Source: a virus. From it: a DNA stretch of 64,000 nucleotides. The stretch spans positions 28,685 to 92,684 of the IMG/VR virus record IMGVR_UViG_3300037553_000311; one strand, given 5' to 3'. Shown here in pieces: positions 4,604-61,649 of this stretch. The notes under the pieces were generated by a model. It saw nothing but the letters and a program-made list of their open reading frames with translations, did not search any database and was not told where the DNA came from. How positions within the stretch are numbered: the stretch's first letter is position 1; each line of letters opens with the position of its first letter. The position numbers were made by a program, and so were the translations under genes.

Positions 4604-4776
4604 TACACTCTCTCCATATGTTACATTTAAAGAAAGTGAGCAACTTAGTTAATCTCACGATACCACATGCGATCCATTTAAGTGGGTGATTCTTATTATG
4701 CGGCATATCGAATCTATCTATTATTATACAGTGTATCATGATATAAATTCCTATAGTATTTATGATGTGTCTATCA

Positions 4777-10282: not shown

Positions 10283-10305
10283 TCAGGTATATATCACTAT
10301 AGTAG
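10283..10305 (+). promoter_or_regulatory. Putative early promoter
   Basis: tcaggtatatatcactatagtag. Confidence 0.7.
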
Positions 10306-13894: not shown

Positions 13895-14052
13895 TGTGGA
13901 TTCTCTCCTAGTTGTAATAAAGTATTAATTGTTATAGCCTTATAGCTATATAATAAAGTATATGAGTATTATACGCAACCTATATGATTAACTAACTTAG
14001 CTAGGTAGGTACTTATTTTTAAGTATCAGTAGAAGTGCCATCTCAACAACTT

Positions 14053-14075
14053 TCAGGTATATATTAAGATAGTAG
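14053..14075 (+). promoter_or_regulatory. Putative early promoter (variant)
   Basis: tcaggtatatattaagatagtag. Confidence 0.6.
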
Positions 14076-14085
14076 TATAGGATAT

Positions 14086-14227
14086 TAAGAGTGGTTCTTA
14101 GTATCTAAGTAGTACCTAGTCTTTAGTTCCTAGGTTGAAAAGAACGATGAGTTAGTGCGTAAACTTACCAGTACAACTACTGGGCTGATAACGCATACAA
14201 GTACCTTAGGAGGGTATGAATATGAAA
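14086..14227 (+). repeat. Conserved about 140-bp structured leader B, copy 1
   Basis: Near-identical to 39661-39804 and 43964-44101. Confidence 0.9.
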
Positions 14228-14443
14228 TATCAAATCAAGATAGAAACTGGCAATGACGTGATCGACATCAATATTGAGATGAGTTTAAAAGAAGCAATCG
14301 CCCTATCACGGGAATCTGAAGCGGTTATATACCGCTTCTGCAAAGAGTCTGATATCAAGATTACCGACATCGGTGAGCTCTTCAGTACTGCCATGTCGAA
14401 ACTGAAGGAACGCATGAAGCGTTCCTCCTCCTCCAAAGAGTAG
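14216..14443 (+). CDS. Small hypothetical cassette protein (true start probably 14222)
   Basis: Follows CCTTAGGAGGG; followed by a strong hairpin at 14449-14486. Confidence 0.75.
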   Translation: MNMKYQIKIETGNDVIDINIEMSLKEAIALSRESEAVIYRFCKESDIKITDIGELFSTAMSKLKERMKRSSSSKE

Positions 14444-14676
14444 TACCTCCCCCCAACTTATCTAGTAGTATTAGATAAGTTGGGGGTTACTACTTTATTA
14501 TTTTTTTATAATAACTATTCATAGCTACTAGACTAGGTTATATAGTGAAATTATTTATCATAGAACCTCATAATCTTATAGATCAGGTAGTATATCGAGT
14601 AGTGTCTGATATGCTATCTAATCACTAGATCAGGTGTCTGTTTTTTGTAATCTAATAATACACGGAGAATGTAATC

Positions 14677-16026
14677 ATGTCGCTACTAACTAGTCTAAAT
14701 AATAAAGATCTATCTCTAGGTAGATTTAGCCTTAACACTGGAACTCATTTTGATATAGCTACTGGTAAGTTCATCCCAGGTAAGGTGAAAAATAAATCCA
14801 CTATGATACTCAATGGTGGATTAGCTATGACTAACGCTATCACTGGTAGAGAACAAACATTTAAGTCATCTGTAGCTATAGGGTATTTTGTTAGAGCTAT
14901 CAAGAACTACGAGAAATCTATTGGTGTAGTATATGATTCAGAGATATCCATAGCTGGAGTCGAACGAGTTATCCAATTAGGTGGAGCTGATCCGTTACCT
15001 AACGATCCGTTGTATGATCGCATTGAACTTTTCGATAAGACTCATGCTGACTTAGGTCAAGTATTTAAAGTAGTGCAAGATATAGCACGTAATAAAGAAA
15101 AGCATCGTAAAGATCTCATAGAAGAGACACCATTTATAGATCGTCACGGTAAGTTCTTAAAGGCATGGCGACCTACTTTAGTATTGATTGATAGCTTCTC
15201 AGCAGGTGAATTCACTAAGCAAGCTGAAGTATTTGAACAATATACAGTAGGTGATGCTAAAACTAATACAGTATATATGGGTGACGGTAATGCTAAAACT
15301 CAGTTCATGAGTCAGCTACCAGCATTAGCAGCTAAAGGTATCTACTTTATATTGACAGCCCATATAGGTGATAAGATCAAGATGGACCCATATGCTGCTA
15401 GTAATAAAGACTTACCACATATGAGAGGATCAGATCATATCAAGCGAGTAGGTACACAATTCACATTCCAGTCTAATAATCTACTAGAGACTAGAAAGGT
15501 AGGTATACTCCAAGATACTAATAAGAAATGTCAATACCCTCACGATTCAGGTTCACCTGTTGAGCTACAAGAGATAATTTCTATAATATGTCGTTGTAAG
15601 AATAATGTATCTGGCTCTATCGTACATCATATCAGTTCTCAGTATTATGGGATACAGGAGTACTTGGAATACTTTAATCTCATCAAGAATAGTAAGACGT
15701 CATTAATGTCAGGTACTCTCACGTACAAGTTAGGATTTGGTGATTGGGAATTTAACCGTAAGAATATTAGACAGCTCATTAAAGATGATTATGAGTTTCG
15801 TAGGACATTAGAGATACTAGGACAGTTTTTATATATACGTAATAACTGGAACTTACCTGAAGTATCATCGATTGGATATGTTGAGTTCTGTAAGAAGCTT
15901 ACAGAGGCTAATAGTAAATCATCTGATATAATTAACAGTACTGGAATCTGGTCATTTAATGCAGATAAACAAGACCGTAGTTATATGTCTATATTAGACA
16001 TAGTAGCTCTGATCAATCAAAAATAA
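14677..16026 (+). CDS. uvsX: RecA/UvsX-like recombinase (phiKZ-type)
   Basis: Walker A GREQTFKS, YDSEIS, Walker B LIDSFS, FILTAH and KNN. Confidence 0.8.
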   Translation: MSLLTSLNNKDLSLGRFSLNTGTHFDIATGKFIPGKVKNKSTMILNGGLAMTNAITGREQTFKSSVAIGYFVRAIKNYEKSIGVVYDSEISIAGVERVIQLGGADPLPNDPLYDRIELFDKTHADLGQVFKVVQDIARNKEKHRKDLIEETPFIDRHGKFLKAWRPTLVLIDSFSAGEFTKQAEVFEQYTVGDAKTNTVYMGDGNAKTQFMSQLPALAAKGIYFILTAHIGDKIKMDPYAASNKDLPHMRGSDHIKRVGTQFTFQSNNLLETRKVGILQDTNKKCQYPHDSGSPVELQEIISIICRCKNNVSGSIVHHISSQYYGIQEYLEYFNLIKNSKTSLMSGTLTYKLGFGDWEFNRKNIRQLIKDDYEFRRTLEILGQFLYIRNNWNLPEVSSIGYVEFCKKLTEANSKSSDIINSTGIWSFNADKQDRSYMSILDIVALINQK

Positions 16027-26109: not shown

Positions 26110-26249
26110 ATATACATCAGATACTACTTTGATGTACCTCCACTGATCTAGCGATTAGTAGATATACATCAGATACTACTTTGATGCACATTTATCTTAA
26201 CCAAGTACATGGTATGACATCATGTACACATATTAAATAGGAGATCATA

Positions 26250-26574: not shown

Positions 26575-28146
26575 ATGCCAGTAATCGAAAGTGTAAAAGA
26601 TCAAGAAGTAGGTAATCCAGTATCTGGTACTATCAATGAGCGCCCAGCAGCTCCAACGATTGGTGACATCATGAGTATTCATGGTATCAGAGGAGGTCAG
26701 TCTCAAGAAGCCTCTGAATATATCGATCGTATCAAGAAAGCTGTACAAGCTTTCACCACTACTGAGAAAGTACAAGTACGACGTCTCGGTAATGATGAAA
26801 ACATTACCGTGTTTACAGTAGGTAAAGATTCAGTGATCCTCAGGACAGATTCTGAAGTAGTATCTAATCTCAATGAACTATTAGTAGAAGCTGATCTTCA
26901 GCGTGTCTATAAAGAGTTCAAAGCGATTTACCCTGAGAATCAGTTAATCAACATCATCGCATGTAATAAGTACATGTACGGGAAAGCTTCCCAGATGACT
27001 ACTTACATTAAAGAATTATTACATACTCGTAACTCTGAGTTCATTAAGAACTTCACAGTGAAATCATTCACTCGTAAGTATAAGCTCGAAATCGATACTG
27101 ATGTAACTGCCGTGAAACAGTATCTTGAGATGAATAGCCCTAATGCTACACGTACTGTAGACTTCGGGTTCACAGCATCAGTAGTAGATAATGAGCAAGA
27201 TAGTAGTGGTGGATATCAGAAGCGTGAACCTATCTTCGCTGTCAGTGGATATGTAGACTTTGTTGAGATCGCTCAAAGTAGCGGATATATCGCTGGTTTC
27301 AGCACAGGACCAAGTCGATTCCAACCGATAATTCACGTGACTGAAATCTGTAGTACTATCGTATCATCTAAGATACTTGCACTCGCTATCCCATTAGCAG
27401 CAGAGATCTTTGTCAATCGGGAATTGTGGAAGACACCATTCCTCACGCTTGGACGTACTGATATCAATATCGGTAATCTTCTTCTTGATCCAGAGAAGAA
27501 TACTCCATATAAAGCAAAGACAGCTACTGATATCGCTCGTACATTTACTAATATCGAACCACCATTATTCACAGTAGATGTAATCAGTGGAGCTGCTGGT
27601 CTTCCTGGTCTGAATCGTTTCACTAACCCAGATCGTCATCACCTTATCTCTCAAGATATTGCTGACTTCTTGGATACAGATGAAAGAGGAATTCTCCCAT
27701 CAGATGGAAAAGCAGTATCCTATAATGTCGATCGTGAGATTGTAGGTATCGTGGAATCAGCTAAAGGTCTCAAAGGTGCTTCGTTATTAGACACTAGAGA
27801 TATCAGTTACCTATTCGCTACATCTCTCTTGGGATATAGTGATAAGATACGCCACCTCATGCGTGGTAGTAGTGATCCAATTGCCAAATATGAACTCATC
27901 AAAGAGATCATCGGTGAAGTAATCCCTACAGGTCTCAATACGATCGCATTGATCAATGGTGATTTTATCACTAAGATAGCTGTCATCATCTCATCTAAGA
28001 TCGACATCGTATTACCGACTAACAATACTGCTCAGCAGATAGATATCTCCAAATACACTGATCTCACTTACAATGGTGTAAGTACGTTCAGTACATCTAA
28101 CAATAGTAATATGAACTTTCAGCAAGGTAGTTATACCAGCTACTAA
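26575..28146 (+). CDS. chmA: Chimallin (phage nuclear shell protein) candidate
   Basis: Strong AAGGAGG RBS and early promoter. It is the core gene preceding the nvRNAP beta-prime N-terminal gene. F.P.I.VT.I...LAL...W..PF....INIGNL resembles recalled chimallin motifs. Confidence 0.65.
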   Translation: MPVIESVKDQEVGNPVSGTINERPAAPTIGDIMSIHGIRGGQSQEASEYIDRIKKAVQAFTTTEKVQVRRLGNDENITVFTVGKDSVILRTDSEVVSNLNELLVEADLQRVYKEFKAIYPENQLINIIACNKYMYGKASQMTTYIKELLHTRNSEFIKNFTVKSFTRKYKLEIDTDVTAVKQYLEMNSPNATRTVDFGFTASVVDNEQDSSGGYQKREPIFAVSGYVDFVEIAQSSGYIAGFSTGPSRFQPIIHVTEICSTIVSSKILALAIPLAAEIFVNRELWKTPFLTLGRTDINIGNLLLDPEKNTPYKAKTATDIARTFTNIEPPLFTVDVISGAAGLPGLNRFTNPDRHHLISQDIADFLDTDERGILPSDGKAVSYNVDREIVGIVESAKGLKGASLLDTRDISYLFATSLLGYSDKIRHLMRGSSDPIAKYELIKEIIGEVIPTGLNTIALINGDFITKIAVIISSKIDIVLPTNNTAQQIDISKYTDLTYNGVSTFSTSNNSNMNFQQGSYTSY

Positions 28147-28199: not shown

Positions 28200-28325
28200 C
28201 ATTTAGTGTGTCATGTAGCTTCTCTTTTTATGCACTCTTAGGAGTAGCAATAAGTATCTACTACTCCTAAGAGTGTAGTTCATCAGTAGCTTACTATTTC
28301 AGGAGGAATGTGTCCTCACTACATC

Positions 28326-28348: not shown

Positions 28349-28462
28349 ATGTACATCAGATACTACTTGATGTACATCTACTGATCTAGTAATGAGATAA
28401 CGTATAGAATAATCTATACACATGCTAAAAGTCAGATATCTGACATGATACCTTAGGAGGGT

Positions 28463-32580: not shown

Positions 32581-34386
32581 ATGAATTCATTAACAGCACC
32601 TGGTAAGATGCACTGTTTCAACTGTGGAAAATACAAGCTAGAGAAACACTTCATGGGTAAACCATCTGGACGATTTGCAATCTGTATGAATTGTATTAAT
32701 GAGTATCTACCTAACGACAAAGCTCAAATCACTGACATGAAACCAGTTCATTCTGGAATGTGTACTAGTGATAAATGTAATCGTACTACTGACCTATATA
32801 CATTCAATGACAAGATCATATGCTTACCATGTTTATATAAGTTATTAGTTAGTTGTATGACTGGTGATAATAGTAATTATATTACATGCTCTCGATGTGG
32901 AGACAATCAACCGATATCTTCTTTTGCTAATAGTGGTAGAACAGTTAACTGGGGTAAGAAGTCAATATGTCGAGGATGTATCAGTGGGAGCGATCACGTT
33001 AAGCATAAACTTATATCAGATATGACTGATAAAGAAATTACAATCACTGAGAAGAAGTGTGGTCATTGTGGAGTAGTGAAAACTATCAATCACTTCAATC
33101 GCCGGAATACTTCAGACGATGGTCTTGCCACACATTGTCAGGTATGTACTAAGTATATAAGAGATTGTCGAACAGCTAATTTAGCTAAGCTTCCAGATAA
33201 GAATCTACCTATCGATGAATATACTGATCTATTAAAACATGTTCACTTCATATGCATCAAATGTAATTCACCCAAACAACTTTCTAATTTCCCTAGCTTT
33301 AAAGATACATATAAACATGTATGCAATAGTTGTACAACATCCAGATTATCAACAACAGCTACTAGTACGTATGCTGATTTTCAAATCAAGTACAAAGCGG
33401 CTAATACTAATCTAGAACACGAAGATGTCCAAAGGTGCTCTAATTGTAAATCGATCAAACCACTATCTCATTTTCATCAGCACCTCAATGGTGTAGGGGG
33501 TGGAATTTCAAAGACCACGTCATGGTGTAAAGCTTGTAGGGTAATTCAGGCAAAGGATCGATGGGGAGATATAAAAGATCATCATGCGGGTGTATGTAAG
33601 AAATATAAAGCTAAATTCCCTGAGAGACGTCTAGCTACTAATTTAGTTAGAACCTCTTTGTTAGATGTCGATGGTATCGTATCTAGATTACCAAATAATT
33701 ATGTCTATCATCATTGGAACTATTCTACTGAACATCACTTAGATGTTATCCAATTGAGTAAAGCTATTCATATCAACTTACATTTAAGATTAGAATATCA
33801 TAGAGATCTTGAAACAGGTACATTCATATTTAGAGATAAGAAAACAGGTGAGCTTTTAGATACTAAAAAGAAGCACGTGTTGGTTATTGATGAGATCAAA
33901 AGTTCAAATCCTAAACTAATTGAACCTATAATAAGTGATCGTCAAGGATTGAAGACTAAATATATAACTAGTAATAAACCTTATGCTAATTTGATAGTAC
34001 CTGTCACAGATGAGACTGAAAAGGTATTCTGTAGGTCTTGTAAAAACTATCTACTGCCTGCATATTTTAATGAGGTACAGACTAATGGTAATGTTAAATT
34101 CATTTATGATGTTTGTACTAGATGTAATACTGTATTAGGAGCTAGACACGATGTGAATAATGATCCAGAAATCAGTAGTATAGATGAGTTGAATACTAAG
34201 GATACTCGTGATTACAGTATCGTTTCGAAACATTGCTATGGGTGTTTAGAATTGAAACCGTTAGCATCATTTCCTCGATCAGCTGCTAATATTTTAACTG
34301 GTAGGCATCGGTATTGCGCCGATTGTGCTAAGTATATACGTGGTACTGACAGTAAACAGGATCACATCAATCATGATGAGTTGTAG
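32581..34386 (+). CDS. Multi zinc-finger protein with an HNH-like core
   Basis: Numerous CxxC pairs with K....F spacing; YHHWNYS...VIQLSKAIHINLH. Confidence 0.65.
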   Translation: MNSLTAPGKMHCFNCGKYKLEKHFMGKPSGRFAICMNCINEYLPNDKAQITDMKPVHSGMCTSDKCNRTTDLYTFNDKIICLPCLYKLLVSCMTGDNSNYITCSRCGDNQPISSFANSGRTVNWGKKSICRGCISGSDHVKHKLISDMTDKEITITEKKCGHCGVVKTINHFNRRNTSDDGLATHCQVCTKYIRDCRTANLAKLPDKNLPIDEYTDLLKHVHFICIKCNSPKQLSNFPSFKDTYKHVCNSCTTSRLSTTATSTYADFQIKYKAANTNLEHEDVQRCSNCKSIKPLSHFHQHLNGVGGGISKTTSWCKACRVIQAKDRWGDIKDHHAGVCKKYKAKFPERRLATNLVRTSLLDVDGIVSRLPNNYVYHHWNYSTEHHLDVIQLSKAIHINLHLRLEYHRDLETGTFIFRDKKTGELLDTKKKHVLVIDEIKSSNPKLIEPIISDRQGLKTKYITSNKPYANLIVPVTDETEKVFCRSCKNYLLPAYFNEVQTNGNVKFIYDVCTRCNTVLGARHDVNNDPEISSIDELNTKDTRDYSIVSKHCYGCLELKPLASFPRSAANILTGRHRYCADCAKYIRGTDSKQDHINHDEL

Positions 34387-34706: not shown

Positions 34707-34870
34707 AGATGCATCAGATGATACTTGATGCATCTCTACTGATCTCTGATTAGTAGATGTGCATAAGATACAACCTGATGTACATCTACTGATCTAGTAA
34801 TGAGATAGCGTATAGAATAATCTATACACACGCTAAAAGTCAGATATCTGACATGATACCTTAGGAGGGT

Positions 34871-36124
34871 ATGAATATGAAAGTGAGTAATGAAGTAATG
34901 AATATCTATGGTAACGATGGAGATCAATTCGATAAAGTAGCGATAGATTCTAGTGGTAATGTCATCTGTGCTGGTACTATCGGATCAGAAGGGACTGGTA
35001 GTCATGTGGGTATATTAATAATCAAGTATGATATTAACCTTAATGTACTAGTTAGAAAGGTATATGGTGGTAGTGGTGGTGATAGGTTCGGACAAGTAAC
35101 TACGGACTCTAATAATAACGTCATCTGTGTTGGATATACACTATCAGGAAGAGCTGGTGATTATGATACACTAGTAGTGAAGTTTGATAGTGATCTTAAT
35201 CTACTAGCTAGGAAGACATATGGTGGTATTATTTTGGATGAGTTCAGTGCAGTAGCTACTGACTCTAATGATAATGTCATCTGTGCTGGGTATACTACTA
35301 GTGAAGATAATTGTTATCATGATGCATTAGTAGTTAAGTTCAGCGGTACTGATCTTAGTATACTAGCTAGGAAAGTATATGGTGGAACTGTCATTGATAT
35401 GTTCCGTGGAGTAACTACTGATACTAATGGTAATATTATCTGTACTGGATATACTCGTAGTGAAGGTAGTGGTTATGATGATACATTAGTAGTTAAGTAT
35501 GATAGTAATCTTAATGTACTAGCTAGGAAATCATACGGTGGTTATGTTTTTGACTACTTCTATGGAGTAGCTACTGATACTAATAATGATATCATATGTG
35601 TTGGGTATACTACTGGTGAAGGTAGTGGTAATGATGATGCATTAGTAGTTAAGTTCAGTGGTAGTGATCTTAGTATACTAGCTAAGAAAGTATACGGTGG
35701 TACAATTAATGACCGCTTCCGTGGAGTAGCTACTGATAGTGATGATAATATCATATGTACTGGACATACTACTTCGGAAGGAGATGATAATGGTAATGTC
35801 ATATTAGTAGTCAAGTTTGATAGTGACCTTAATGTATTAGCTAGGAAGACATATGGTGGGATTGACGATGATGATCACTACCTTGGAGTAACTATAGATC
35901 CTAATGGTAATATCATATATGTTGGACGTACTATTTCAGAAGAAACTAATGATTATACTCCCCTAGTAGTGAAGTATTATACTCCCCTAGTAGTGAAGTT
36001 CCAACGCAGATTATATCAAGTAGCTACTGATACTAATGGTAATGTCATCTGTACTGATGTTAACGATACCGATGAATCTGATAGTCATGAGGATGCGGTA
36101 GTAGTCAATCATGATGAGTTGTAG
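34871..36124 (+). CDS. Beta-propeller repeat protein (paralog family)
   Basis: Seven repeats plus a degenerate eighth. Confidence 0.85.
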   Translation: MNMKVSNEVMNIYGNDGDQFDKVAIDSSGNVICAGTIGSEGTGSHVGILIIKYDINLNVLVRKVYGGSGGDRFGQVTTDSNNNVICVGYTLSGRAGDYDTLVVKFDSDLNLLARKTYGGIILDEFSAVATDSNDNVICAGYTTSEDNCYHDALVVKFSGTDLSILARKVYGGTVIDMFRGVTTDTNGNIICTGYTRSEGSGYDDTLVVKYDSNLNVLARKSYGGYVFDYFYGVATDTNNDIICVGYTTGEGSGNDDALVVKFSGSDLSILAKKVYGGTINDRFRGVATDSDDNIICTGHTTSEGDDNGNVILVVKFDSDLNVLARKTYGGIDDDDHYLGVTIDPNGNIIYVGRTISEETNDYTPLVVKYYTPLVVKFQRRLYQVATDTNGNVICTDVNDTDESDSHEDAVVVNHDEL

Positions 36125-37385: not shown

Positions 37386-38522
37386 ATGAGTAAAGTAGAT
37401 AGTAGTAAAATAAGTAGTAGTCGTATGATTGAAACGATATATGGTGGCACTGGTTATGTTTTCTATGGAATAACTACTGACTCTAACGATGATATCGTAT
37501 GTATTGCGAATACTAATAGTGGAGAAGGTGACGACATTAACACAGTAACAGTAGTTAAGTTTAGTGGTAGTGATCTTAGTGTCCTAGCTGAGTATGTATA
37601 CGGTAGTTCTGATCGCAATTTCCTCTATGGAGTAGCTACTGACTCTAATGATGATATCATATGTGCTGGGTTTACTGTTAGAGATGGAATTGATAGTAAT
37701 GATGCATTAGTAGTTAAGTTCAGTGGTAGCGATCTTAGTATATTAGCTGAGCAGGTACACAGTGTTACTAGTCGTGATTACTTTTATGACATAGTTACTG
37801 ATCCTGATGGTAATATCATCTGCGTTGGGAATACTTATAGTGAAAGTAGTGTTACCACTGATGCATTAGTAGTTAAGTTCAGCGGTAGTGATCTTAGTGT
37901 CCTAGCTGAGCAGGTATACAGTAATACTGATCATGATAGCTTCCATGGAGTAGCTACTAATCATGATGGCGATATCGTGTGTGTAGGATATACTGCTAGT
38001 GAAGGAGGTATTGGTATGTCTGCGTTAGTAGTTAAGTTCAGTGGTACCGATCTCAGTATACTAGCTAGGAAAGTATACGGTGATACTTGTTACGATTGTT
38101 TCCGAGGAGTAGTTACTGATCTTAATAATGATATCGTGTGTATTGGTCATACTCGTAATGAAGTATCTGACAGTTATGATGGATTAGTAGTTAAGTTCAG
38201 TGGTAGTGATCTTAGTATACTAGCTGAGCAGGTATATAGTGGTACTGATAATGATAATTTTAACGGAGTAGTACTTGACTCTAAAGGTGATATAATGTGC
38301 GTCGGATGGATTATTAGTGAAGAATCTAATAGTCCCGATGCATTACTAGTTACGTTCGATGGTAGTGATCTTAGCATACTATCTGATCAAGTGCTAATCG
38401 GAGAATTCTTCTATGCAGTAGCTACTAATCATAACGGTGATATAGTATGTGTTGGATCGACTTCTAGTGAAGAATCTAGTAGTGCTAATGCATTAGTAGT
38501 GAAGTATGTTAACGTGACTTAG
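37386..38522 (+). CDS. Beta-propeller repeat protein, seven repeats
   Basis: Same repeat family; RBS/start block duplicated from 36869. Confidence 0.85.
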   Translation: MSKVDSSKISSSRMIETIYGGTGYVFYGITTDSNDDIVCIANTNSGEGDDINTVTVVKFSGSDLSVLAEYVYGSSDRNFLYGVATDSNDDIICAGFTVRDGIDSNDALVVKFSGSDLSILAEQVHSVTSRDYFYDIVTDPDGNIICVGNTYSESSVTTDALVVKFSGSDLSVLAEQVYSNTDHDSFHGVATNHDGDIVCVGYTASEGGIGMSALVVKFSGTDLSILARKVYGDTCYDCFRGVVTDLNNDIVCIGHTRNEVSDSYDGLVVKFSGSDLSILAEQVYSGTDNDNFNGVVLDSKGDIMCVGWIISEESNSPDALLVTFDGSDLSILSDQVLIGEFFYAVATNHNGDIVCVGSTSSEESSSANALVVKYVNVT

Positions 38523-38528
38523 TAAAAA

Positions 38529-38580
38529 ACTACCTACCTACCTAGCTACTTAGCTAAGTAGGTAGGTACTTATATTTTTT
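38529..38580 (+). terminator. CCTACCTACCTAGCTA-family hairpin plus T tract
   Basis: Related copies at 40125, 43808 and 44505. Confidence 0.75.
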
Positions 38581-38631
38581 ACTAATTACTAAGGTTATTA
38601 TCTATAGGTAGAAGTGTCATAGTAACTACTT

Positions 38632-38654
38632 TCAGGTATATATTACCTATGTAG
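38632..38654 (+). promoter_or_regulatory. Putative early promoter
   Basis: tcaggtatatattacctatgtag. Confidence 0.65.
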
Positions 38655-38726
38655 TATTATGCATGAATTATAAAAGATCAGTACTCTACATGAGACTGGC
38701 ATAAATATCATAGGAGATAACTTAGT

Positions 38727-39464
38727 ATGAATAAAGCTAAAAGTATACGTGGAATATATAAGACGATGACATGTATCGTCGAATACAAAGATTGCATCAT
38801 TGCAATCGATCGAGCTAACCGTGATGAAGTCATGGTGGTAAAGTTTGATCATGATTTGAATATAGTAGCAATCAGATCTATAAACTGTACAGGGAATATA
38901 TCTAAGGTAAGAGCTGATAATGATCAGATATATGTAGTAGGTTATACCGTTGATCCACGTAATGGTGATGATAGATCACTCATGGTCATCCTGGATAAAT
39001 CTGATCTCAGTATCACTCATACATGTATGGGTGATCACGGTAGTAGATATCGCGGTATTATACTATCACAAGGTAATGTCATATGTGTCGGTAGTAAGCG
39101 TGCTGACATTATCACTAATGTAGATACTGAAGGTATCCTTCAGAAATACTCATGTGAGACTGGTGAATTATTAATCACTAGGACATATTGGCAGAATCGA
39201 TGTAATATCGATCTGAATGGAATCACTAGTGGTGGTGACTATTTATATGTGATAGGTACAATTATCAATATCAGAGATGTACAGGGTGCGATATTATTGA
39301 GATACGATCATAATTTGAACCGGATGGTAGTGAATGTCAATCATTATAGTGATAATATCACACAGTTCGGTAATGTGATATATCAGAATGGTAAACTGAG
39401 GTGCTCCTACATACTTGATGGTAAGATATCTTACCAGACATATGATGCAGCTACGTTAGTGTAA
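38727..39464 (+). CDS. Divergent beta-propeller-like protein
   Basis: VVKFDHDLN, GNVICVG and DLS remnants of the family repeat. Confidence 0.65.
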   Translation: MNKAKSIRGIYKTMTCIVEYKDCIIAIDRANRDEVMVVKFDHDLNIVAIRSINCTGNISKVRADNDQIYVVGYTVDPRNGDDRSLMVILDKSDLSITHTCMGDHGSRYRGIILSQGNVICVGSKRADIITNVDTEGILQKYSCETGELLITRTYWQNRCNIDLNGITSGGDYLYVIGTIINIRDVQGAILLRYDHNLNRMVVNVNHYSDNITQFGNVIYQNGKLRCSYILDGKISYQTYDAATLV

Positions 39465-39629
39465 TAGATTAGATTATACACTCATCTACACATGCGATAT
39501 GTGTAGATGAGTGATGTCTGGTAAGCTTTATATTTTATACACTCTCAGCATGAGTAATATGCATCTACTACTCTTGAGAGTGAGTTCATCAGTAGCTTAC
39601 TATTTTAGAGTATGTAATCTCACGATATC

Positions 39630-39652
39630 TCAGGTATATATTAGTATAGTAG
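39630..39652 (+). promoter_or_regulatory. Putative early promoter (variant)
   Basis: tcaggtatatattagtatagtag. Confidence 0.6.
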
Positions 39653-39660
39653 TAAAATAC

Positions 39661-39804
39661 TAAGAGTGGTTCTTAGTATCTAAGTAGTACCTAGTCTTTA
39701 AGTTCCTAGGTTATCAAAGAACAACGAGTTAGTGCGTAAACTTACCAGTACAACTACTGGGTTGATAACGCACACAAGTACCTTAGGAGGGTATGAATAT
39801 GAAA
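39661..39804 (+). repeat. Structured leader B, copy 2
   Basis: Near-identical to 14086-14227. Confidence 0.9.
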
Positions 39805-40119
39805 ATAGTAAACTTGACTTCCCATCCCATAAATGTTATTAACCCCGACGGAGAGGAATTTATATACCCTCCGTCGGGAATTGAATCACGGGTAGAGGAT
39901 GAACATACTCCTCTACCCGCAATGCCTCTATCACCACCGATGTGTAAATCGGTAATGGGGGAGGTCACGAACCTACCTCCCATCGTACCGGACACTATGT
40001 ATATTGTATCCGGTATCGTCAAGACGCAATGTATTGATCGAACAGACCTGGTCCGTCCAGGTCCCCTGATCAGAGATGAAGATGGTATCATCAGAGGGTG
40101 TGAATACCTCCTGATGTGA
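39793..40119 (+). CDS. Hypothetical cassette protein, homolog of 12636-12968
   Basis: VNLTSHPI...PSG...LP...YIVS...DLV.P; visibly more GC-rich than its flanks. Confidence 0.8.
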   Translation: MNMKIVNLTSHPINVINPDGEEFIYPPSGIESRVEDEHTPLPAMPLSPPMCKSVMGEVTNLPPIVPDTMYIVSGIVKTQCIDRTDLVRPGPLIRDEDGIIRGCEYLLM

Positions 40120-40241
40120 AAACGCCTACCTACCTAGCTAGCTAACTAGGTAGGTATATGACTGTATGCGGTTATATTTTTTTAGTAGATTACTAATGTC
40201 ACTATCTATTTATATTTACCTAGAAAATACCACTACATATC

Positions 40242-40264
40242 TTAGGTATATATTATTATAGTAG
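40242..40264 (+). promoter_or_regulatory. Putative early promoter (variant)
   Basis: ttaggtatatattattatagtag. Confidence 0.55.
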
Positions 40265-40324
40265 TATAAGTAGCTAAGTATGACTCTTAGCTTAAGTATG
40301 TAATCTAATATAGGAGGATTTACA

Positions 40325-41680
40325 ATGGATGTGAATGAGAATAATGAACGTGGAAGTATGAGTGCACTTACTAGTGTATACGGTGGTACTAGTCATGACG
40401 TCTTCGAAGGAGTAGCTATCGATACTAATAATGATATCATCTGCGTCGGGTATACTGCTAGTGAGGGTAGTGGAGATGATGATGCATTAGTAGTTAAGTT
40501 CAGTGGTAGCGATCTCAGTATACTAGCTAGGAAAGTATACGGTGGTATTGGTACTGACTACTTCTGGGGAGTAGCTATCGATACTAATAATGATATCATC
40601 TGCGCAGGGTATACTTATAGTGAAGGTAGTGGTAGTCCATCATACAGCAGTGCTTTAGTAGTTAAGTTCAGCGGTAGTGATCTTAGTATACTAGCTAGGA
40701 AAGTATACGGTGGAGCTGACACTGACTACTTCAATGGAGTAGTTACTGATGATAATAATGATATCATATGTGCTGGGAATACTTATAGTGAAGGTAGTGG
40801 CGGTGCCGATGCATTAGTAGTTAAGTTCAGTGGTAGCGATCTTAGTATACTAGCTAAGAAGATATACGGCGACATTAGTACTGACTACTTCTATGGAGTA
40901 GCTATCGATACTAATAATAACATCATATGTACTGGGTATACCACTAGTGAGGGTAGTGGAAATGTTGATACATTAGTAGTTAAGTTCAGTGGTAGCGATC
41001 TTAGTATACTAGCTAGGAAAGTATATGGTGGAGATGACACTGACTACTTCTATGGAGTAGCTACTGATGCTAATAATGATATCGTCTGTGTCGGATATAC
41101 CACTAGTGAGGGTAGTGGGGATGTTGATGCTTTAGTAGTTAAGTTCAGTGGTATTGATCTTAGTATACTATCTAGTAAGGTATACGGTGGTACTGAGGAT
41201 GACTACTTCTTCGGAGTAGTAGTCGATACTAATAATAACATCATCTGTGCAGGGTATACTAAAAGTGAAGGTAGTGGTGGTACCGATATTTTAGTAGTTA
41301 AGTTCAGTGGTAGCGATCTTAGTATACTAGCTAAGAAAGTATACGGTGGTACTGGTGATGATATCTTATATGGAGTAGCTACCGATACTAATAATAACAT
41401 CATATGTACTGGGAATACATATAGTGAAGGTAGTGGTAGTCCGATATACAGCAGTGCATTAGTAGTTAAGTTACCTAGCGACATACCTGCTGGTACTTTC
41501 GTAGGTCCAGTATTCACTAACTTAACTCTTCAAGATAGTAACCTAACCTTAGCTGATAGTATTTTAACATTAGCTGATAGTAACCTAACCTTAGCAGATA
41601 GTAACCTAACCTTAGCTGATAGTACATTAACCTTAACTGATAGTGATCTTACTCAAGAAGTCGACACTATGGAACTGTAG
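40325..41680 (+). CDS. Beta-propeller repeat protein with C-terminal LADSNLT heptapeptide repeats
   Basis: Seven blade repeats plus a 21-bp tandem repeat tail. Confidence 0.85.
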   Translation: MDVNENNERGSMSALTSVYGGTSHDVFEGVAIDTNNDIICVGYTASEGSGDDDALVVKFSGSDLSILARKVYGGIGTDYFWGVAIDTNNDIICAGYTYSEGSGSPSYSSALVVKFSGSDLSILARKVYGGADTDYFNGVVTDDNNDIICAGNTYSEGSGGADALVVKFSGSDLSILAKKIYGDISTDYFYGVAIDTNNNIICTGYTTSEGSGNVDTLVVKFSGSDLSILARKVYGGDDTDYFYGVATDANNDIVCVGYTTSEGSGDVDALVVKFSGIDLSILSSKVYGGTEDDYFFGVVVDTNNNIICAGYTKSEGSGGTDILVVKFSGSDLSILAKKVYGGTGDDILYGVATDTNNNIICTGNTYSEGSGSPIYSSALVVKLPSDIPAGTFVGPVFTNLTLQDSNLTLADSILTLADSNLTLADSNLTLADSTLTLTDSDLTQEVDTMEL

Positions 41681-41730
41681 TAATACATACATCCAACTAG
41701 TGTATGTAATCTAATATAGGAGGATTTACA

Positions 41731-43095
41731 ATGGATGTGAATGAGAATAATGAACGTGGAAGTATGAGTGTACTTACTAGTGTATACGGTGGTACTAATC
41801 ATGACGTCTTCGAAGGAGTAGTTACTGACTCTAAAGGTGATATCATCTGTGTCGGGTATACTAGTAGTGAAGGTAGTGGAGATGTTGATGCATTAGTAGT
41901 TAAGTTCAGTGGTAGCGATCTTAGTATACTAGCTAGGAAAGTATACGGTGGCACTGGCACTGACTACTTCAATGGAGTAGCTACTGACTCTAATAATGAT
42001 ATCATCTGTATTGGGATTACTGGTAGTGGTAGTGGTAGTCCGATATACAGCAGTGCATTAGTAGTTAAGTTCAGTGGTAGCGATCTCAGTATACTAACTA
42101 AGAAAGTATACGATGATGATGTACATGACCGCTTCTATGGAGTAGCTACTGACTCTAATAATAATAATATCATCTGTACTGGGATTACTGGTAGTGAAGA
42201 TAGTAGTGGTAATAATACATTAGTAGTTAAGTTCAGTGGTAATGATCTTAGTATACTAGCTAGGAAAGTATATGGTGGTACTAGTACCGACTACTTCTAT
42301 GGAGTAGCTACCGATACTAATAATAACATCATATGTGCTGGGAATACTTATAGTGAAGGCGGTGGCAATAATGATGCATTAGTAGTTAAGTTCAGTGGTA
42401 GCGATCTTAGCATACTAGCTAGGAAAGTATACGGTGGCACTGGCACTGACCGCTTCTATGGAGTAGCTACCGATACTAGTGATGATATCGTCTGTGTTGG
42501 GATTACTAATAGTGAAGGTAGTGGTAGTCCATCATATAACAGTGCATTAGTAGTTAAGTTCAGTGGTAATGATCTTAGTATACTAGCTAGAAAAGTATAC
42601 GGTGGAGCTAGTGATGACTACTTCCGTGGAGTAACTACTGATGCTAATAATGATATCATCTGTGTCGGGTATACTAAAAGAGAAGGTAGTGATAGTCCTA
42701 CATACAGAAGTACATTAGTAGTTAAGTTCAGTGGTAGTGATCTTATTATACTAGCTAGTAAAGTATATGGTGGAGCTGGTACTGATATATTCCATGGAGT
42801 AGTTACTAATACTAACGGTGATATCGTGTGTGTTGGGAATACTTATAGTGAAGGCGGTGGTGGTACTGATGCGTTGGTAGTTAAGTTACCTAGTGATATA
42901 CCTACTGGTACATTCACCAGTACCATACGCACTAACTCAACTCTCCAAGATAGTAACCTAACCTTAGCAGATAGCACTTTAACATTAGCTGATAGTAACC
43001 TAACCTTAGCAGATAATGATCTTACATTAACTGATAGTACATTAACCTTAGCAGATAGTGATCTTACTCAAGAATCTGATACTATGGAACTGTAG
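41731..43095 (+). CDS. Beta-propeller repeat protein with C-terminal LADSNLT repeats (tandem duplicate)
   Basis: Same N- and C-termini as 40325-41680. Confidence 0.85.
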   Translation: MDVNENNERGSMSVLTSVYGGTNHDVFEGVVTDSKGDIICVGYTSSEGSGDVDALVVKFSGSDLSILARKVYGGTGTDYFNGVATDSNNDIICIGITGSGSGSPIYSSALVVKFSGSDLSILTKKVYDDDVHDRFYGVATDSNNNNIICTGITGSEDSSGNNTLVVKFSGNDLSILARKVYGGTSTDYFYGVATDTNNNIICAGNTYSEGGGNNDALVVKFSGSDLSILARKVYGGTGTDRFYGVATDTSDDIVCVGITNSEGSGSPSYNSALVVKFSGNDLSILARKVYGGASDDYFRGVTTDANNDIICVGYTKREGSDSPTYRSTLVVKFSGSDLIILASKVYGGAGTDIFHGVVTNTNGDIVCVGNTYSEGGGGTDALVVKLPSDIPTGTFTSTIRTNSTLQDSNLTLADSTLTLADSNLTLADNDLTLTDSTLTLADSDLTQESDTMEL

Positions 43096-43143
43096 TAATG
43101 TACACCTAACTAGTGTATGTAATCTAATATAGGAGGCTTTACA

Positions 43144-43788
43144 ATGGATGTGAACGAGACTAATGAACGTGGAAACATAGCTGAGAAAGTATATGGTGGT
43201 ACTGGTATTGATAGGTTCTATGAGGTAGTTACCGACACTAATAATGACATCATCTGTGTCGGGTATACTGCTAGTGAAGATAGTAATTGTTGGTATGCAT
43301 TAGTAGTTAAGTTTAGTGGTAGTGATTTGAGTATACTAGCTAGGAAGGTATACGGTGGTACTGGTACCGAATACTTCCATGGAGTTACTACTGATACTAA
43401 TAATGATATCATCTGCGCTGGGATTACTGGTAGTGATGATGCATTAGTAGTTAAGTTCAGCGGTACTGATCTTAGTATATTATCTAGTAAGGTATACGGT
43501 GGTAGTGGTGATGACTGCTTCAATGGAGTAACTACTGACTCTAATAATGATATCATATGCACTGGGATTACTGATAGTGAAGGTAGTGGTGGTGCTGATG
43601 CATTAGTAGTTAAGTTCAGCGGTACTGATCTTAGTATACTATCTAGTAAGGTATACGGTGGTAGTGGTGATGACTGCTTCAATGGAGTAACTACTGACTC
43701 TAATAATGATACCGTCTGTGTCGGGTACACTAGTAGTGATGGTGATGATGCATTAGTAGTTAAGTTTAGTGGTAATGATCCTACCTGA
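43144..43788 (+). CDS. Beta-propeller repeat protein, four repeats
   Basis: Third MDVNE-start copy, truncated. Confidence 0.8.
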   Translation: MDVNETNERGNIAEKVYGGTGIDRFYEVVTDTNNDIICVGYTASEDSNCWYALVVKFSGSDLSILARKVYGGTGTEYFHGVTTDTNNDIICAGITGSDDALVVKFSGTDLSILSSKVYGGSGDDCFNGVTTDSNNDIICTGITDSEGSGGADALVVKFSGTDLSILSSKVYGGSGDDCFNGVTTDSNNDTVCVGYTSSDGDDALVVKFSGNDPT

Positions 43789-43930
43789 GTAGTACTAGTA
43801 GTCAAGTACCTACCTACCTGCCTAGCTAAGTTAGCTAGGCAGGTAGGTATATTAGGTAGGTAACTACTTATATTTTTTTACTAATTACTAAGGTTACTAT
43901 CTATAGGTAGAAGTGCCATTTCAACAACTT

Positions 43931-43953
43931 TCAGGTATATATTAAGATAGTAG
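43931..43953 (+). promoter_or_regulatory. Putative early promoter (variant identical to 14053)
   Basis: tcaggtatatattaagatagtag. Confidence 0.6.
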
Positions 43954-43963
43954 TATAGGATAT

Positions 43964-44101
43964 TAAGAGTAGTACCTAGTCTTTAGTTCCTAGGTTGAAA
44001 GGTAGGGAAATCAAAGAACGATGAGTTAGTGCGTAAACTTACCAGTACAACTACTGGGTTGATAACGCATATAAGTACCTTAGGAGGGTATGAATATGAA
44101 A
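43964..44101 (+). repeat. Structured leader B, copy 3
   Basis: Same as 14086 with one deletion and one insertion. Confidence 0.9.
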
Positions 44102-44494
44102 TTTAAACAAGACGGATACGGTATAGTAATTAAAATGATCCAAGAAACATGTGGTATCGAAATCGATATCACATACGAAGATAGGAATCAAGTGATTCCT
44201 ATCGAGCAGTTCTCTCCAGGATTAAGACGTGCCGACGTATTGTTAGAGGATGGTAAACTCTACTTAGTCGATAATAAGTTAGATTCAGATATAAGCACTG
44301 TTGTAAAGGTAGATATAGATTGTGTTGATTCACATCGTGTGGATCGACAGGATGTGAGTACAAAAGGGCGGCTGGAAATCGCAGCCGTTGGAGGTAACAA
44401 ATGTTGCCTCAAGGAGGTTCAGTTTCAAAGATGCGTTAGTATGATACTAATTGAGTTCAGTGAAAATGAACTAGGTAGTAACCCGCTAATCTGA
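44090..44494 (+). CDS. Hypothetical cassette protein
   Basis: Follows leader B; ends before a CCTACCTACC hairpin. Confidence 0.75.
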   Translation: MNMKFKQDGYGIVIKMIQETCGIEIDITYEDRNQVIPIEQFSPGLRRADVLLEDGKLYLVDNKLDSDISTVVKVDIDCVDSHRVDRQDVSTKGRLEIAAVGGNKCCLKEVQFQRCVSMILIEFSENELGSNPLI

Positions 44495-44712
44495 ACTAAT
44501 ATATACCTACCTACCTAGCTAATGTAGCTAGGTAGGTAGATGACTGTATGTGGTTATATTTTTTAGTAGATTGCTAATGTTACTATCCATGATGACTCTC
44601 AAAGTACCCTACCTGTATAGAGATATACGTGAAGCTGTTTTCAGAGCTAAAATGGCGACACCAGCTCTTGTAAACGTGGGATGCTTGAAGCGTTCTAACG
44701 TAACTATGTATT

Positions 44713-44735
44713 TCAGGTATATATTACTATAGTAG
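44713..44735 (+). promoter_or_regulatory. Putative early promoter
   Basis: tcaggtatatattactatagtag. Confidence 0.75.
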
Positions 44736-44838
44736 AGATACATCAGATACAACCAGATGTACCTCTACTGATCTCTGATTAGTAAGCATATCAGATACTA
44801 TATATTAAATACACTACATTCCTTTAGGAGGGAAACTT

Positions 44839-45429
44839 ATGATCAAATTAAATGCAACAGTAGGGTTAGGTCAATTGGTTGGCTTATCTGGTACTGATGA
44901 GTTACTGGGTCAGATTAACAATTCACTGAGTAATAGTAACTTCTTCAACTCAATCGATGATATCTTAACTAAGGGGCGTCAGTTATATGTAACTAATATA
45001 ATCAACCCTATTAAAGCTATTGGTAATACTATCAAGAATCAGATAGCTGGATTCATTGTCACTAATGAGATAATGGTAATAGATACTGAAGACACATTAG
45101 CTAATGTTCCATCAGTGATGCATCTACCCATATTACAATATAAACCTATACGTGATCTATATGACGAAGGTAGGATCTTTGGATTTGGAGCTGACTTCAT
45201 ACCAGATGGTGACCCATATGGTAGACTCATATCTAATGGAGCTGTAGAAGATGTAGCTGAAGCTATGGATAAGGAAGGTTACATTGAACATAAATATAGA
45301 TTTGAATCTACTGACCCTATATTAACATTCGGTGAGTTAGATAAGATCTGCGCTACTAGAGAATTTGTAGATAAGATATTAAGCGAGACTAATTTCGATC
45401 CTACAGATATGCCTAACGATAAGGGCTAA
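44839..45429 (+). CDS. Conserved jumbo-phage hypothetical protein (phiKZ gp59-like, tentative)
   Basis: C-terminal DPT motif; position in the nvRNAP block. Confidence 0.55.
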   Translation: MIKLNATVGLGQLVGLSGTDELLGQINNSLSNSNFFNSIDDILTKGRQLYVTNIINPIKAIGNTIKNQIAGFIVTNEIMVIDTEDTLANVPSVMHLPILQYKPIRDLYDEGRIFGFGADFIPDGDPYGRLISNGAVEDVAEAMDKEGYIEHKYRFESTDPILTFGELDKICATREFVDKILSETNFDPTDMPNDKG

Positions 45430-45488
45430 ACTTATATTCATATCACCAGTACTGATTTCATAGTACTGGTGATATATGGAGAATAGAT

Positions 45489-45890
45489 ATGAATACAGTA
45501 ATACCTACATTAAAGACAGAAGTCAGTTATCTGACTAGTCCGATTGATATCGTGAAGCATGTATTACAACATTACTTTCATGCTCCTAAGAGTATCAATG
45601 ATACATTCGCTGATAGTGCAATATCTTTTCGTCATGATGATGCTACATCTGGTGCTGATCCAGCTGCACTGACACTGAAAGTCACTAATGTACTCACTGA
45701 TACGTTCTCTAAGTATTTTCCATCAGCTACTACTATCGATGTAGATGTGAATTATATTCGAATAGATGATGTCAGATATGATATCGTATTAGATATCATA
45801 GTAGTGATAGATGGAGTACCATATACATTTGAAGAAAGCTACACTACTGATGATGAAGGACATCTGACATATAAGTATAAAGGTGAGTGA
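45489..45890 (+). CDS. Hypothetical protein
   Basis: GGAG RBS; overlaps the ligase start. Confidence 0.7.
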   Translation: MNTVIPTLKTEVSYLTSPIDIVKHVLQHYFHAPKSINDTFADSAISFRHDDATSGADPAALTLKVTNVLTDTFSKYFPSATTIDVDVNYIRIDDVRYDIVLDIIVVIDGVPYTFEESYTTDDEGHLTYKYKGE

Positions 45891-48769: not shown

Positions 48770-49873
48770 ATGAGTGGCTTGAAGATCATACATACTTCAG
48801 ATTGGCATTTTGGACATGGGAGAGTAGATACAGATGATACTATCTCAGATATTAGAAAGTACTTATTCCCTAAGTTAGTAGATGCTGATATATTAGTTAT
48901 AGCTGGGGATATATTTGATAACAGTATCAGTATAAACTCTAAAGATGCAGCTAGTGTATTAGCATTCTTTGTAGATGTGTTTTATAAATGCTATGAGCAT
49001 AATGTCATACTTCGCATATTGTTAGGTACATTCAGTCATGATAGGAATCAGATCAAATCTATTGAACGCTTATACAGTAGGTTTAATATACCATTAGATT
49101 TTAGATACATTGATACTATCGATGTAGAGTATATAGCTAAGGTAGATACTTCATTTCTATACTTACCTGATAACTTACCATATAAGACTAAGCATGAAGT
49201 ATTTGAACAAGTAGATAAGTTACTCATAGGAGCTGATATATCTAAAGTAGATTATGTAATCAACCATGGTGAGTTTAACCATGCTACATATGGATATATC
49301 AATGACAATGCGTATGATGTATCTGACTTTAAAGATATATGTAAGTATCTGGTACTTTCTGGACATATACACAATAAGAGTAAACGAGGTAATGTCCTCT
49401 ACGCTGGTAGTATCAATAGACTAGCGCATAATGAAGAATCAGCTAAAGGCTTCTGGTACATAGAAGGTACTGATACTAAATTCATTACTAATACGTCAGC
49501 TACACAGTTTATAACTGAGACATATGAAGGTACTGATTTAGATACCTTACTCAAGTATCATGATGAATTGATAGCGTCTAAGTTTGATCCTAATCGTAGA
49601 GGATATCTGAGACTCATCATAGATGACGTACATATCAGACAAGCTGTACGAAAGTATCATGATAAGCAAGAGTTTAACGTAGTACTGACATTTAAGATCA
49701 ATAAGAAGCAGAGTGATCAATTCGATCTCAATATCAAAGCTGAGCGTACAGAGATCCTAGTAGCACCTTCTGAAGCTACTATATCCACTATCGTATCTGA
49801 ACACCTAATTAAGACTAAAGCTACTAATCTACCACTCGATACTATCAAATCAATCATCTTCGATCATACATGA
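48770..49873 (+). CDS. sbcD: SbcD/Mre11-like metallophosphoesterase nuclease
   Basis: SDWH, AGDIFD, GT.SHD, HG, GHIH and YAGS. Confidence 0.9.
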   Translation: MSGLKIIHTSDWHFGHGRVDTDDTISDIRKYLFPKLVDADILVIAGDIFDNSISINSKDAASVLAFFVDVFYKCYEHNVILRILLGTFSHDRNQIKSIERLYSRFNIPLDFRYIDTIDVEYIAKVDTSFLYLPDNLPYKTKHEVFEQVDKLLIGADISKVDYVINHGEFNHATYGYINDNAYDVSDFKDICKYLVLSGHIHNKSKRGNVLYAGSINRLAHNEESAKGFWYIEGTDTKFITNTSATQFITETYEGTDLDTLLKYHDELIASKFDPNRRGYLRLIIDDVHIRQAVRKYHDKQEFNVVLTFKINKKQSDQFDLNIKAERTEILVAPSEATISTIVSEHLIKTKATNLPLDTIKSIIFDHT

Positions 49874-56874: not shown

Positions 56875-56897
56875 TCAGGTATATATTACTATAGTAG
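56875..56897 (+). promoter_or_regulatory. Putative early promoter
   Basis: tcaggtatatattactatagtag. Confidence 0.75.
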
Positions 56898-57001
56898 AGT
56901 ATCAAGTATTATCCGATACTCTACATGATCTAGTGATTAGTAAGTAAGTACAATCAGATACTACATATCAAACACACTAAATTCCTTTAGGAGGGAAGCA
57001 A

Positions 57002-61467: not shown

Positions 61468-61490
61468 TCAGGTATATATCACTATAGTAG
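61468..61490 (+). promoter_or_regulatory. Putative early promoter of the nvRNAP beta gene
   Basis: tcaggtatatatcactatagtag. Confidence 0.7.
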
Positions 61491-61649
61491 AGATGCATCA
61501 GATAATACTTGATGTATCTCTACATGATCTAGCGATTAGTAGAAGGTATCAGATAATACTTGATACCTACCACTGATCTAGTGATTAGTAAGTAAGTACA
61601 ATCAGATACTACATATCAAACACACTAAATTCCTTTAGGAGGGAAACTT

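Follow-up and report, generated by a model that had tools for sequence, protein, structure and literature searches.

Shared promoter and leader frames around unrelated small genes of a jumbo phage contig: probable PeSL-like regulatory cassettes, one with a putative Crn4b-family ring nuclease

Three cassettes and their common frame

The DNA analyzed here is a window of 64,000 nucleotides (nt) from an uncultured marine virus, bases 28685-92684 of a 92.7-kb contig (IMG/VR record IMGVR_UViG_3300037553_000311) for which CheckV gives a completeness of about 32%. The contig encodes pieces of the beta and beta' subunits of a multisubunit RNA polymerase (PHROG 2987, 3295), an NAD-dependent ligase, a UvsX-like recombinase, an SbcD-like nuclease and a DnaB-like helicase, a predicted gene set by which we judge it to be part of a phiKZ-like jumbo phage. 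Our subject is a group of three cassettes in this window, in which dissimilar small open reading frames (ORFs), called cargo 1, cargo 2 and cargo 3 in order of position and all on the plus strand, stand behind copies of the same promoter and the same leader, which we call leader B (Table 1). Positions are those of the window unless stated otherwise.

Promoter and leader B together span about 170 nt and occur three times, beginning at 14054, 39631 and 43932, with pairwise identities of 82-90%. Alignment of 39630-39804 with 43931-44101 gave 82.5% identity over 177 columns (E 7e-46), that of 39617-39804 with 14040-14227 gave 90% over 190 columns (E 4e-68), and that of 43907-44102 with 14029-14228 gave 84% over 214 columns. 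A 45-nt core of the leader occurs three times, against 0 occurrences expected from shuffles. Identity between any two copies is 97% in the final 60 nt before the start and 74-89%, with indels, in the 5' part of the leader. In all three copies the likeness runs through TACCTTAGGAGGGTATGAATATGAAA, that is, up to ATG-AAA, and is lost after it; over their first 60 coding nt the cassettes are unrelated. These alignments bear out an earlier reading of the letters alone (the original prediction), according to which the cassettes at 39630-40205 and 43931-44590 share promoter, leader B and ribosome-binding site. Once the junction positions of the leader-B copies on the contig were tabulated, all three copies proved to be joined to their cargo at the same nucleotide, not at random positions. 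A third unrelated ORF, at 14216, had also been described as fused to the leader at this nucleotide; the joint is indeed identical, but the ORF most likely starts at 14222, and its terminator is a different one.

The Shine-Dalgarno (SD) sequence AGGAGG lies 2 nt from a first ATG and 8 nt from a second, which is found at 14222, 39799 and 44096 and gives proteins of 73, 106 and 132 amino acids. Two of the three gene calls on the record begin at this second ATG (those of 106 and 132 amino acids), the Crn4-family homologues of cargo 2, to which we return below, start with M-K/N/R-I/V-x-N-L-T aligned to it, and a beta-propeller paralogue with a variant spacer (GGAGGGTAAGTTATGAAAGTG) has only the ATG that is equivalent to it. 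The second ATG is most likely the functional start. Since SD spacing and homologue starts both point to this codon, the cargo proteins do not appear to carry a fused MNMK tag; leader B would end at the start codon, and the shared part would consist of the ribosome site, the spacer, the ATG and a lysine codon. This second codon, AAA, is native to many Crn4 homologues.

The promoter core, CAGGTATATATTA, has 22 copies on the plus strand of the contig and one on the minus strand. The conserved motif is a single AT-rich block without a -35 partner, and a sigma-70 scan of 38000-45500 listed no site at 39631, 40243, 43932 or 44714. Jumbo phages that have a virion RNA polymerase typically carry AT-rich motifs in front of their early operons (PMC7598289), and CAGGTATATATTA is probably an early promoter read by an enzyme of this kind. 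The segments upstream of the promoter are modular as well: that of cassette 2 (39563-39616) is of the type present at 28256, 63874 and 11748 and differs from the module of the other leader-B copies, and that of cassette 3 is common to 38633 (88%) and 14054 (71%). The two-tier hairpin predicted for leader B of cassette 2 has the form GUGCGU..CCAGUA-CAAC-UACUGG..ACGCAC. Predicted folds recur in two of the three leaders with modest z-scores (-1.4 to -2.4), and in the consensus fold the ribosome site is paired with an upstream sequence that contains CCUAGG. Rfam returned nothing at gathering score across the window, and a single chance-level match in 39560-40260; leader B matches no Rfam family. 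With z-scores of this size, and with no covariation to be drawn from three copies, riboregulation by leader B is only a conjecture.

Cassettes 2 and 3 also share their 3' flanks, which align with 88% identity over 86 columns (40125-40209 with 44506-44590, E 6e-25), in agreement with the shared flank of about 80 bp that had been described originally. The shared flanks begin 5 and 11 nt past the respective stop codons and belong to a terminator family with four members (38531, 40125, 43809 and 44504), each predicted to form a strong hairpin and a second hairpin, with a U run. The terminator of cassette 1 (CCCCCAAC) is unrelated to this family and occurs a single time on the AT-rich contig. The uniqueness of this G/C-capped terminator suggests that cargo 1 may have arrived with its own 3' end.

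Table 1. Parts of the leader-B cassettes and related modules in the window; promoters, folds and terminators are predictions.
Feature	Position	Strand	Remarks
Cassette 1, probable early promoter core (CAGGTATATATTA)	14054..14066	+	one of 22 plus-strand copies
Cassette 1, leader B	14067..14221	+	ends in AGGAGG (14208-14213) and 8-nt spacer; 90% to 39631 copy, 84% to 43932 copy
Cargo 1, 73-amino-acid orphan ORF	14222..14443	+	75 amino acids from ATG 14216; GC3 0.57, highest of 78 ORFs
Cassette 1, own terminator	14449..14508	+	C5/G5-capped 17-bp hairpin and U run; fold -31.5 kcal/mol, z -7.5
26-nt start region (TACCTTAGGAGGGTATGAATATGAAA) at beta-propeller paralogue	34857..34882	+	also at 28449 and 29887
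Terminator-family member after propeller gene 37386-38522	38531..38605	+	alignment, fold
Cassette 2, probable early promoter core	39631..39643	+	motif copy
Cassette 2, leader B	39644..39798	+	5' hairpin, CCUAGG element, two-tier hairpin, then SD 39785-39790
Cargo 2, putative Crn4b-family ring nuclease, 106 amino acids	39799..40119	+	108 amino acids from ATG 39793; GC 0.46
Cassette 2, terminator module	40125..40209	+	strong hairpin, second hairpin, U run, conserved tail; 88% to 44506-44590
Terminator-family member after truncated propeller gene 43144-43788	43809..43904	+	alignment, fold
Cassette 3, probable early promoter core	43932..43944	+	motif copy
Cassette 3, leader B	43945..44095	+	without 18-nt 5' hairpin segment; extra segment of about 11-13 nt; SD 44082-44087
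Cargo 3, 132-amino-acid orphan ORF	44096..44494	+	134 amino acids from ATG 44090; GC3 0.35
Cassette 3, terminator module	44506..44590	+	same four-copy family; fold
Promoter and leader C before RNA polymerase beta piece	61469..61649	+	PHROG 3295, E 2.5e-128; tail also before 57002 and 44839

The cargo genes

Sequence homology was not detectable among the three cargo proteins, for which BLASTP gave E 0.065 or no alignment. The claim that cargos 2 and 3 are non-homologous has thus held up, with their lengths most likely to be corrected from 108 and 134 to 106 and 132 amino acids. The same comparison bears on the idea that a whole cassette was duplicated and that the three cargos are very divergent paralogues. 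The only likeness that speaks for it lies in the shared first residues, MNMK or MK; the lengths of 73, 106 and 132 amino acids and the predicted secondary structures differ, and cargo 2 is alone in matching the Crn4 family, PHROG 21731/30542 or the PDB. Cargo 3 is poorly modelled, and a shared fold is in a formal sense still compatible with the models. As no significant BLASTP alignment joins the cargos, we rejected common descent, which we regard as extremely improbable and close to refuted.

The cargos stand out by composition. Their GC content at third codon positions (GC3) is 0.566 for cargo 1, 0.450 for cargo 2 and 0.348 for cargo 3, compared with a genome mean of 0.282 (sd 0.056); they take ranks 1, 2 and 5 among 78 ORFs (rank-sum p = 5e-5), so that the original impression of GC-rich cargo was correct. 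No Pfam family fits any of the three. For cargo 1, neither a word-indexed protein search nor tblastn of phage records found a homologue, and PHROG gave one weak match; for cargo 3, profile, protein and phage-record searches found no family or homologue, and the single-sequence AlphaFold model is unusable, with a predicted local distance difference test (pLDDT) score of 36. Atlas look-ups yielded nothing usable for either orphan. The proteins of 106 and 132 amino acids are encoded on 4 and 6 other contigs, respectively, one of which is 27,958 bp long.

Cargo 2 could be assigned with much more detail. With this protein as query, phmmer retrieved 3289 representatives at E <= 0.001, mostly of about 105-110 amino acids. 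An AlphaFold2 model, built from a 26-sequence alignment, reached a pLDDT of 96.8, and Crn4 ring nucleases were its only significant neighbours in the PDB (Foldseek against 9r7b, a Crn4b: E 2e-8, template modelling score 0.79). Comparison with Crn4b gave E 4.7e-23 for the family profile and E 3.9e-6 for the single sequence, at about 29% identity. The site residues reported for these enzymes, a threonine and a histidine in an N-terminal NLTxH loop and an arginine in a C-terminal RD loop, are T13/H15/R112 in Crn4a and H17/R103 in Crn4b, the histidine and the arginine being essential for cleavage of cyclic oligoadenylate (PMC12830947). In cargo 2, N5-L-T7-S-H9 and I-R92-D align to NLTPH and VRD of 9r7b. 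Fold and residues place cargo 2 in the Crn4b ring nuclease family, to judge from these alignments and the model. It has the fold, the family membership and the NLT-x-H and RD motifs in common with Crn4b (9r7b; PMC12830947), and its length is that of the short Crn4b form known from phages and plasmids; it differs in sitting in a jumbo-phage early cassette and in being known from its sequence and predicted fold alone. The identification of the 39799-40119 cargo as Crn4b is new here. The search for cargo homologues as donors has therefore succeeded in part, with a family for cargo 2 and no detectable relatives for cargos 1 and 3.

Crn4b has been found in 11 of 28,137 phage genomes, and an anti-CRISPR role has been proposed (PMC12830947). 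Among phage records, tblastn with cargo 2 found 21, at no more than 36% identity and none of them phiKZ-like, and Pfam showed no fused domains in ten longer Crn4-like homologues. Cargo 2 is likely to be a gene directed against type III CRISPR or the cyclic-oligonucleotide-based anti-phage signalling system (CBASS). A minus-strand ORF of 102 amino acids (39783-40091) overlaps the Crn4-like gene; since the Crn4 homology belongs to the opposite, plus strand, we rejected it as a gene, and the locally high GC content most likely accounts for it.

Sharp joints and mosaic modules

Parts of the leader-B frame recur elsewhere on the contig. In most units the promoter is followed by a hairpin that we call leader A, and in three by leader B; by the final 60 nt before the ATG, units fall into a propeller class, a class B and a class C. 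Four beta-propeller paralogues share the 26-nt start region with leader B, and the leader-B 5' hairpin is found again behind the promoter at 40243, with one compensatory pair. Behind leader B stand two orphans and one accessory gene. Among the genes behind the other leader classes are RNA polymerase pieces and those of the expanded propeller family.

Leader C, located at 56876-57001, 61469-61649 and 44714-44838, served as a control. Its tail (...AGTGATTAGTAAGTAAGTACAATCAGATACTACATATCAAACACACTAAATTCCTTTAGGAGGGAAACTTATG) is 95% identical between the copies at 56876 and 61469 and 83-88% identical to that at 44714, and the likeness ends within 4 nt of the ATG. Behind it lie genes for a 494-amino-acid protein, a 708-amino-acid RNA polymerase beta piece and a 196-amino-acid protein, all of ordinary composition (GC3 ranks 49, 51 and 35); compared with the polymerase piece, the other two products gave no significant alignment. 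Joints between a shared leader and unrelated genes that are sharp at the ATG are general in this genome. Because leader C has them in front of ordinary genes, a core gene included, such joints are not the signature of a device for the capture of foreign ORFs.

A device of this kind had been at the heart of the original prediction, which envisaged that foreign ORFs are captured precisely at the start codon, by a dedicated and unknown mechanism, into a fixed expression socket formed by leader B. Part of this picture stands, since atypical ORFs do sit in a shared frame and are joined to it at their borders. Every leader-B cargo is an outlier in composition, the border in composition coincides with the ORF borders, only 5-11 nt after the stop codons are unshared, the terminator of cargo 1 seems to have come with it, and the three joints are at the same nucleotide. 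However, leader C gives equally sharp joints for resident genes, no site-like repeats other than the ribosome site and the ATG are present at the joints, and an AAA second codon is what many Crn4 homologues have anyway. Moreover, no tyrosine recombinase (PF00589) or reverse transcriptase was found on the 92.7-kb contig, which represents about 32% of the genome; integron-type or reverse-transcriptase-based capture was rejected on this ground. With a joint that is the start codon, with leader C just as sharp and with modules that are mosaic, the need for an unknown start-codon capture mechanism is not supported, and we consider such a mechanism very improbable.

The mosaic becomes apparent when the cassettes are grouped module by module. 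By upstream module, 39631 belongs with 28327, and 43932 with 38633 and 14054; by the first leader hairpin, which is absent in 43932, 14054 groups with 39631; and by terminator, 39631 groups with 43932. In a site-by-site count, 29 sites unite 43932 with 14054 and are clustered around the promoter, 34 sites unite 39631 with 14054 and lie nearly all in two indel blocks, reflecting few events, and 12 sites unite 39631 with 43932. Discordance in blocks of this kind suggests that the cassettes have recombined with one another. Mosaic modules are what arises when repeated regulatory sequences recombine, a mechanism known in T4-type phages (PMC2839356).

The frame could also have been kept alike without any mobility. 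In that case the cassettes would be old duplications maintained for co-regulation by purifying selection on, for example, an RNA structure or an operator for a phage regulator, and the ORFs would have been inserted separately, with later trimming of the flanks. The gradient from 74-89% identity in the 5' part to 97% in the final 60 nt, which contain the two-tier hairpin and the ribosome site, does resemble functional constraint, and an overall identity of only 82-90%, like the recurrence of the folds in two of three copies, suits this account. However, the mosaic combinations of modules could not have arisen unless cassettes had recombined at some stage, it is unparsimonious to assume that three ORFs were inserted independently and each cut back precisely to the ATG, and the z-scores of the folds are of modest size, with no covariation to be had from three copies. 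We rate immobile co-regulation as unlikely, although it keeps some weight.

Relatives of the frame were sought in several collections, and no close one was found. Exact scans of viral_contigs for the leader-B core and for the promoter with the initial transcript gave 0 matches, as did a scan of metagenome_contigs for the leader-B core. The promoter pattern matched 29 loci in metagenome_contigs, none with DNA likeness to our contig. The only kin among them is L055 (Ga0209599_10001640), a 10-kb sequence of 45% GC that encodes distant homologues, at 26-35% identity, of the RNA polymerase beta' piece (its positions 4228-4995) and of the SbcD-like protein (7796-8980). The DNA ligase query found no relative in viral_contigs, and megablast of the region against GenBank phages gave no match. 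An alignment search with the propeller family found 47 loci, the best at 54% identity (L008/L016), and none of them had leader B, the terminator, a cargo or the promoter motif.

An exchange model, known systems and neighbouring genes

The explanation that we favour, with some reserve, is that the cassettes are modular regulatory units of a phiKZ-like jumbo phage, comparable to the promoter-early stem-loop (PeSL) elements of T4-type phages and equipped with a probable virion-RNA-polymerase early promoter, and that they are exchanged by homologous recombination. Each leader-B unit would be a self-contained early transcription unit (a moron), with an early promoter, a structured leader of about 155 nt, a strong ribosome site with its 8-nt spacer, and then a small accessory ORF that begins with ATG-AAA and is followed by a terminator. 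The regulatory parts, from the upstream module and the promoter through the leader parts and the start region to the terminator, each belong to a family of modules that recurs across the genome. Through homologous recombination or gene conversion between these repeats, either within the genome or between co-infecting relatives, ORFs would pass from one frame to another, or frames from one ORF to another; the phage appears to encode both a UvsX-like recombinase and an SbcD-like nuclease. We propose that the likeness ends at the ATG and just past the stop codon because homology between cassettes ends there and because the spacing between SD and ATG is under selection. The cargos would be horizontally acquired accessory genes, to which the shared leader would give a common early expression programme, and a Crn4b-type ring nuclease would destroy cyclic oligoadenylate alarm signals early in infection.

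Several points weigh against this model. An exchange event was not observed, and a flank identity of 82-90%, rather than one near 100%, means that any exchange has not been very recent. Purifying selection could contribute to the likeness of the flanks. Promoter class, transcription start and early timing are deduced from motifs in the DNA. Exchange of the PeSL type alone does not account for the first placement of a foreign ORF directly at the ATG, nor for the fact that it is leader B in particular that carries the three small genes richest in GC3; this association is genuine (p = 5e-5) and only partly explained. Possible answers are transfer among related phages that share frames, microhomology at the ribosome site, the ATG and the AAA, or a special expression class for acquired counter-defence genes.

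PeSLs extend over about 100 bp from a stop codon through a promoter and stem-loop to a ribosome site and start codon, and lie beside orphan genes (PMC2839356). Homologous recombination among their repeats is the proposed way in which they shuffle genes (Arbiol et al. 2010, PMC2839356; Comeau et al. 2014, PMC4122927), and exchange between relatives as well as mini-circles have been demonstrated (PMC2839356, PMC4122927). Leader-B cassettes are like PeSLs in being repeated intergenic modules, with a predicted early promoter and a stem-loop or terminator, that end at a ribosome site and start codon and adjoin small genes, orphan or accessory, that have a promoter and a terminator to themselves. 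Unlike PeSLs, they have a promoter that is not sigma-70-like, lacks a -35 box and is probably read by a virion RNA polymerase; they include a structured leader of about 155 nt within the repeat, their terminator and promoter are separable, and their host is a phiKZ-like jumbo phage.

Two other systems invite comparison. The morons of lambdoid phages, the subject of work by Juhala et al. and Hendrix et al. in 2000, reportedly consist of one accessory gene that has a promoter and a terminator of its own and differs from its neighbours in base composition. Leader-B units resemble them in exactly these respects, having a predicted promoter, a predicted terminator and atypical composition; they are unlike them in that morons are not known to have one near-identical frame of leader and terminator across unrelated genes. 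Integrons possess the tyrosine recombinase IntI and promoterless cassettes that end in attC. Like integron cassettes, the leader-B units present unrelated ORFs in a common expression context with an imperfect palindrome after each, but no integrase was found on the contig, every unit has its own promoter and leader, and the palindromes are followed by U runs in the manner of terminators.

Archaeal viruses place one conserved strong early regulatory sequence before many unrelated anti-defence genes, and this sequence can serve as bait for finding such genes (Bhoobalan-Chitty et al. 2024, PMC11065993). The viruses and their transcription machinery differ from those considered here, where one of three cargos has a predicted fold of anti-defence type. 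It is a tentative and rather doubtful idea that leader B is a dedicated early frame that recruits acquired counter-defence genes, with the Crn4-type ring nuclease as its first identified member and the orphans as new anti-defence proteins for which the leader could be the bait. The nuclease would be aimed at the cyclic-oligoadenylate signalling of type III CRISPR or CBASS, which is among the few defences known to reach nucleus-forming phages. In an extreme form of the idea, ORFs would enter the leader-B frame by an undescribed mechanism that is precise to the start codon.

If the exchange model is true, the principle of mobile regulatory cassettes in T4 extends to a jumbo phage whose early genes are transcribed by a polymerase of its own, and such phages would have a concrete route by which to try foreign genes while leaving their core undisturbed. 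RNA-sensing type III CRISPR with cyclic-nucleotide signalling works against nucleus-forming phages (bioRxiv 10.1101/2022.06.20.496707), and a Crn4-type ring nuclease in a phiKZ-like early cassette would be a plausible counter-measure to type III CRISPR signalling. The shared leader would also nominate the two orphans (14222-14443 and 44096-44494) as further anti-defence candidates, in the way of discovery guided by regulatory sequences (PMC11065993).

As for the neighbourhood, the window contains no tRNA genes. The ORF at 26575-28146 had no sequence match in the PDB or PHROGs; chimallin was not confirmed by sequence, and we therefore do not assert nucleus formation. The UvsX-like recombinase gene (14677-16026) lies directly 3' of cassette 1, and the SbcD-like palindrome nuclease is encoded at 48770-49873; as a speculation, the long palindromic stems of the terminators could serve as entry points for recombination. 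A protein of 601 amino acids (32581-34386), encoded between an RNA polymerase piece and a propeller cassette, matches Lar-like, HNH and endonuclease VII families. At 40243-43788, three tandem beta-propeller paralogues stand behind one promoter, each after a start region of about 40 nt (GTATGTAATCTAATATAGGAGGATTTACAATGGATGTGAATGAG); the third is truncated to 214 amino acids, and the first two end in 21-nt repeats of the LTLADS type, which are present also in the relative L008/L016. Finally, the promoters at 10284 and at contig position 26160 (2524 nt before the window) are 100% identical in their upstream segment and in the first 47 nt of the leader, as if a regulatory module had been duplicated or converted very recently.

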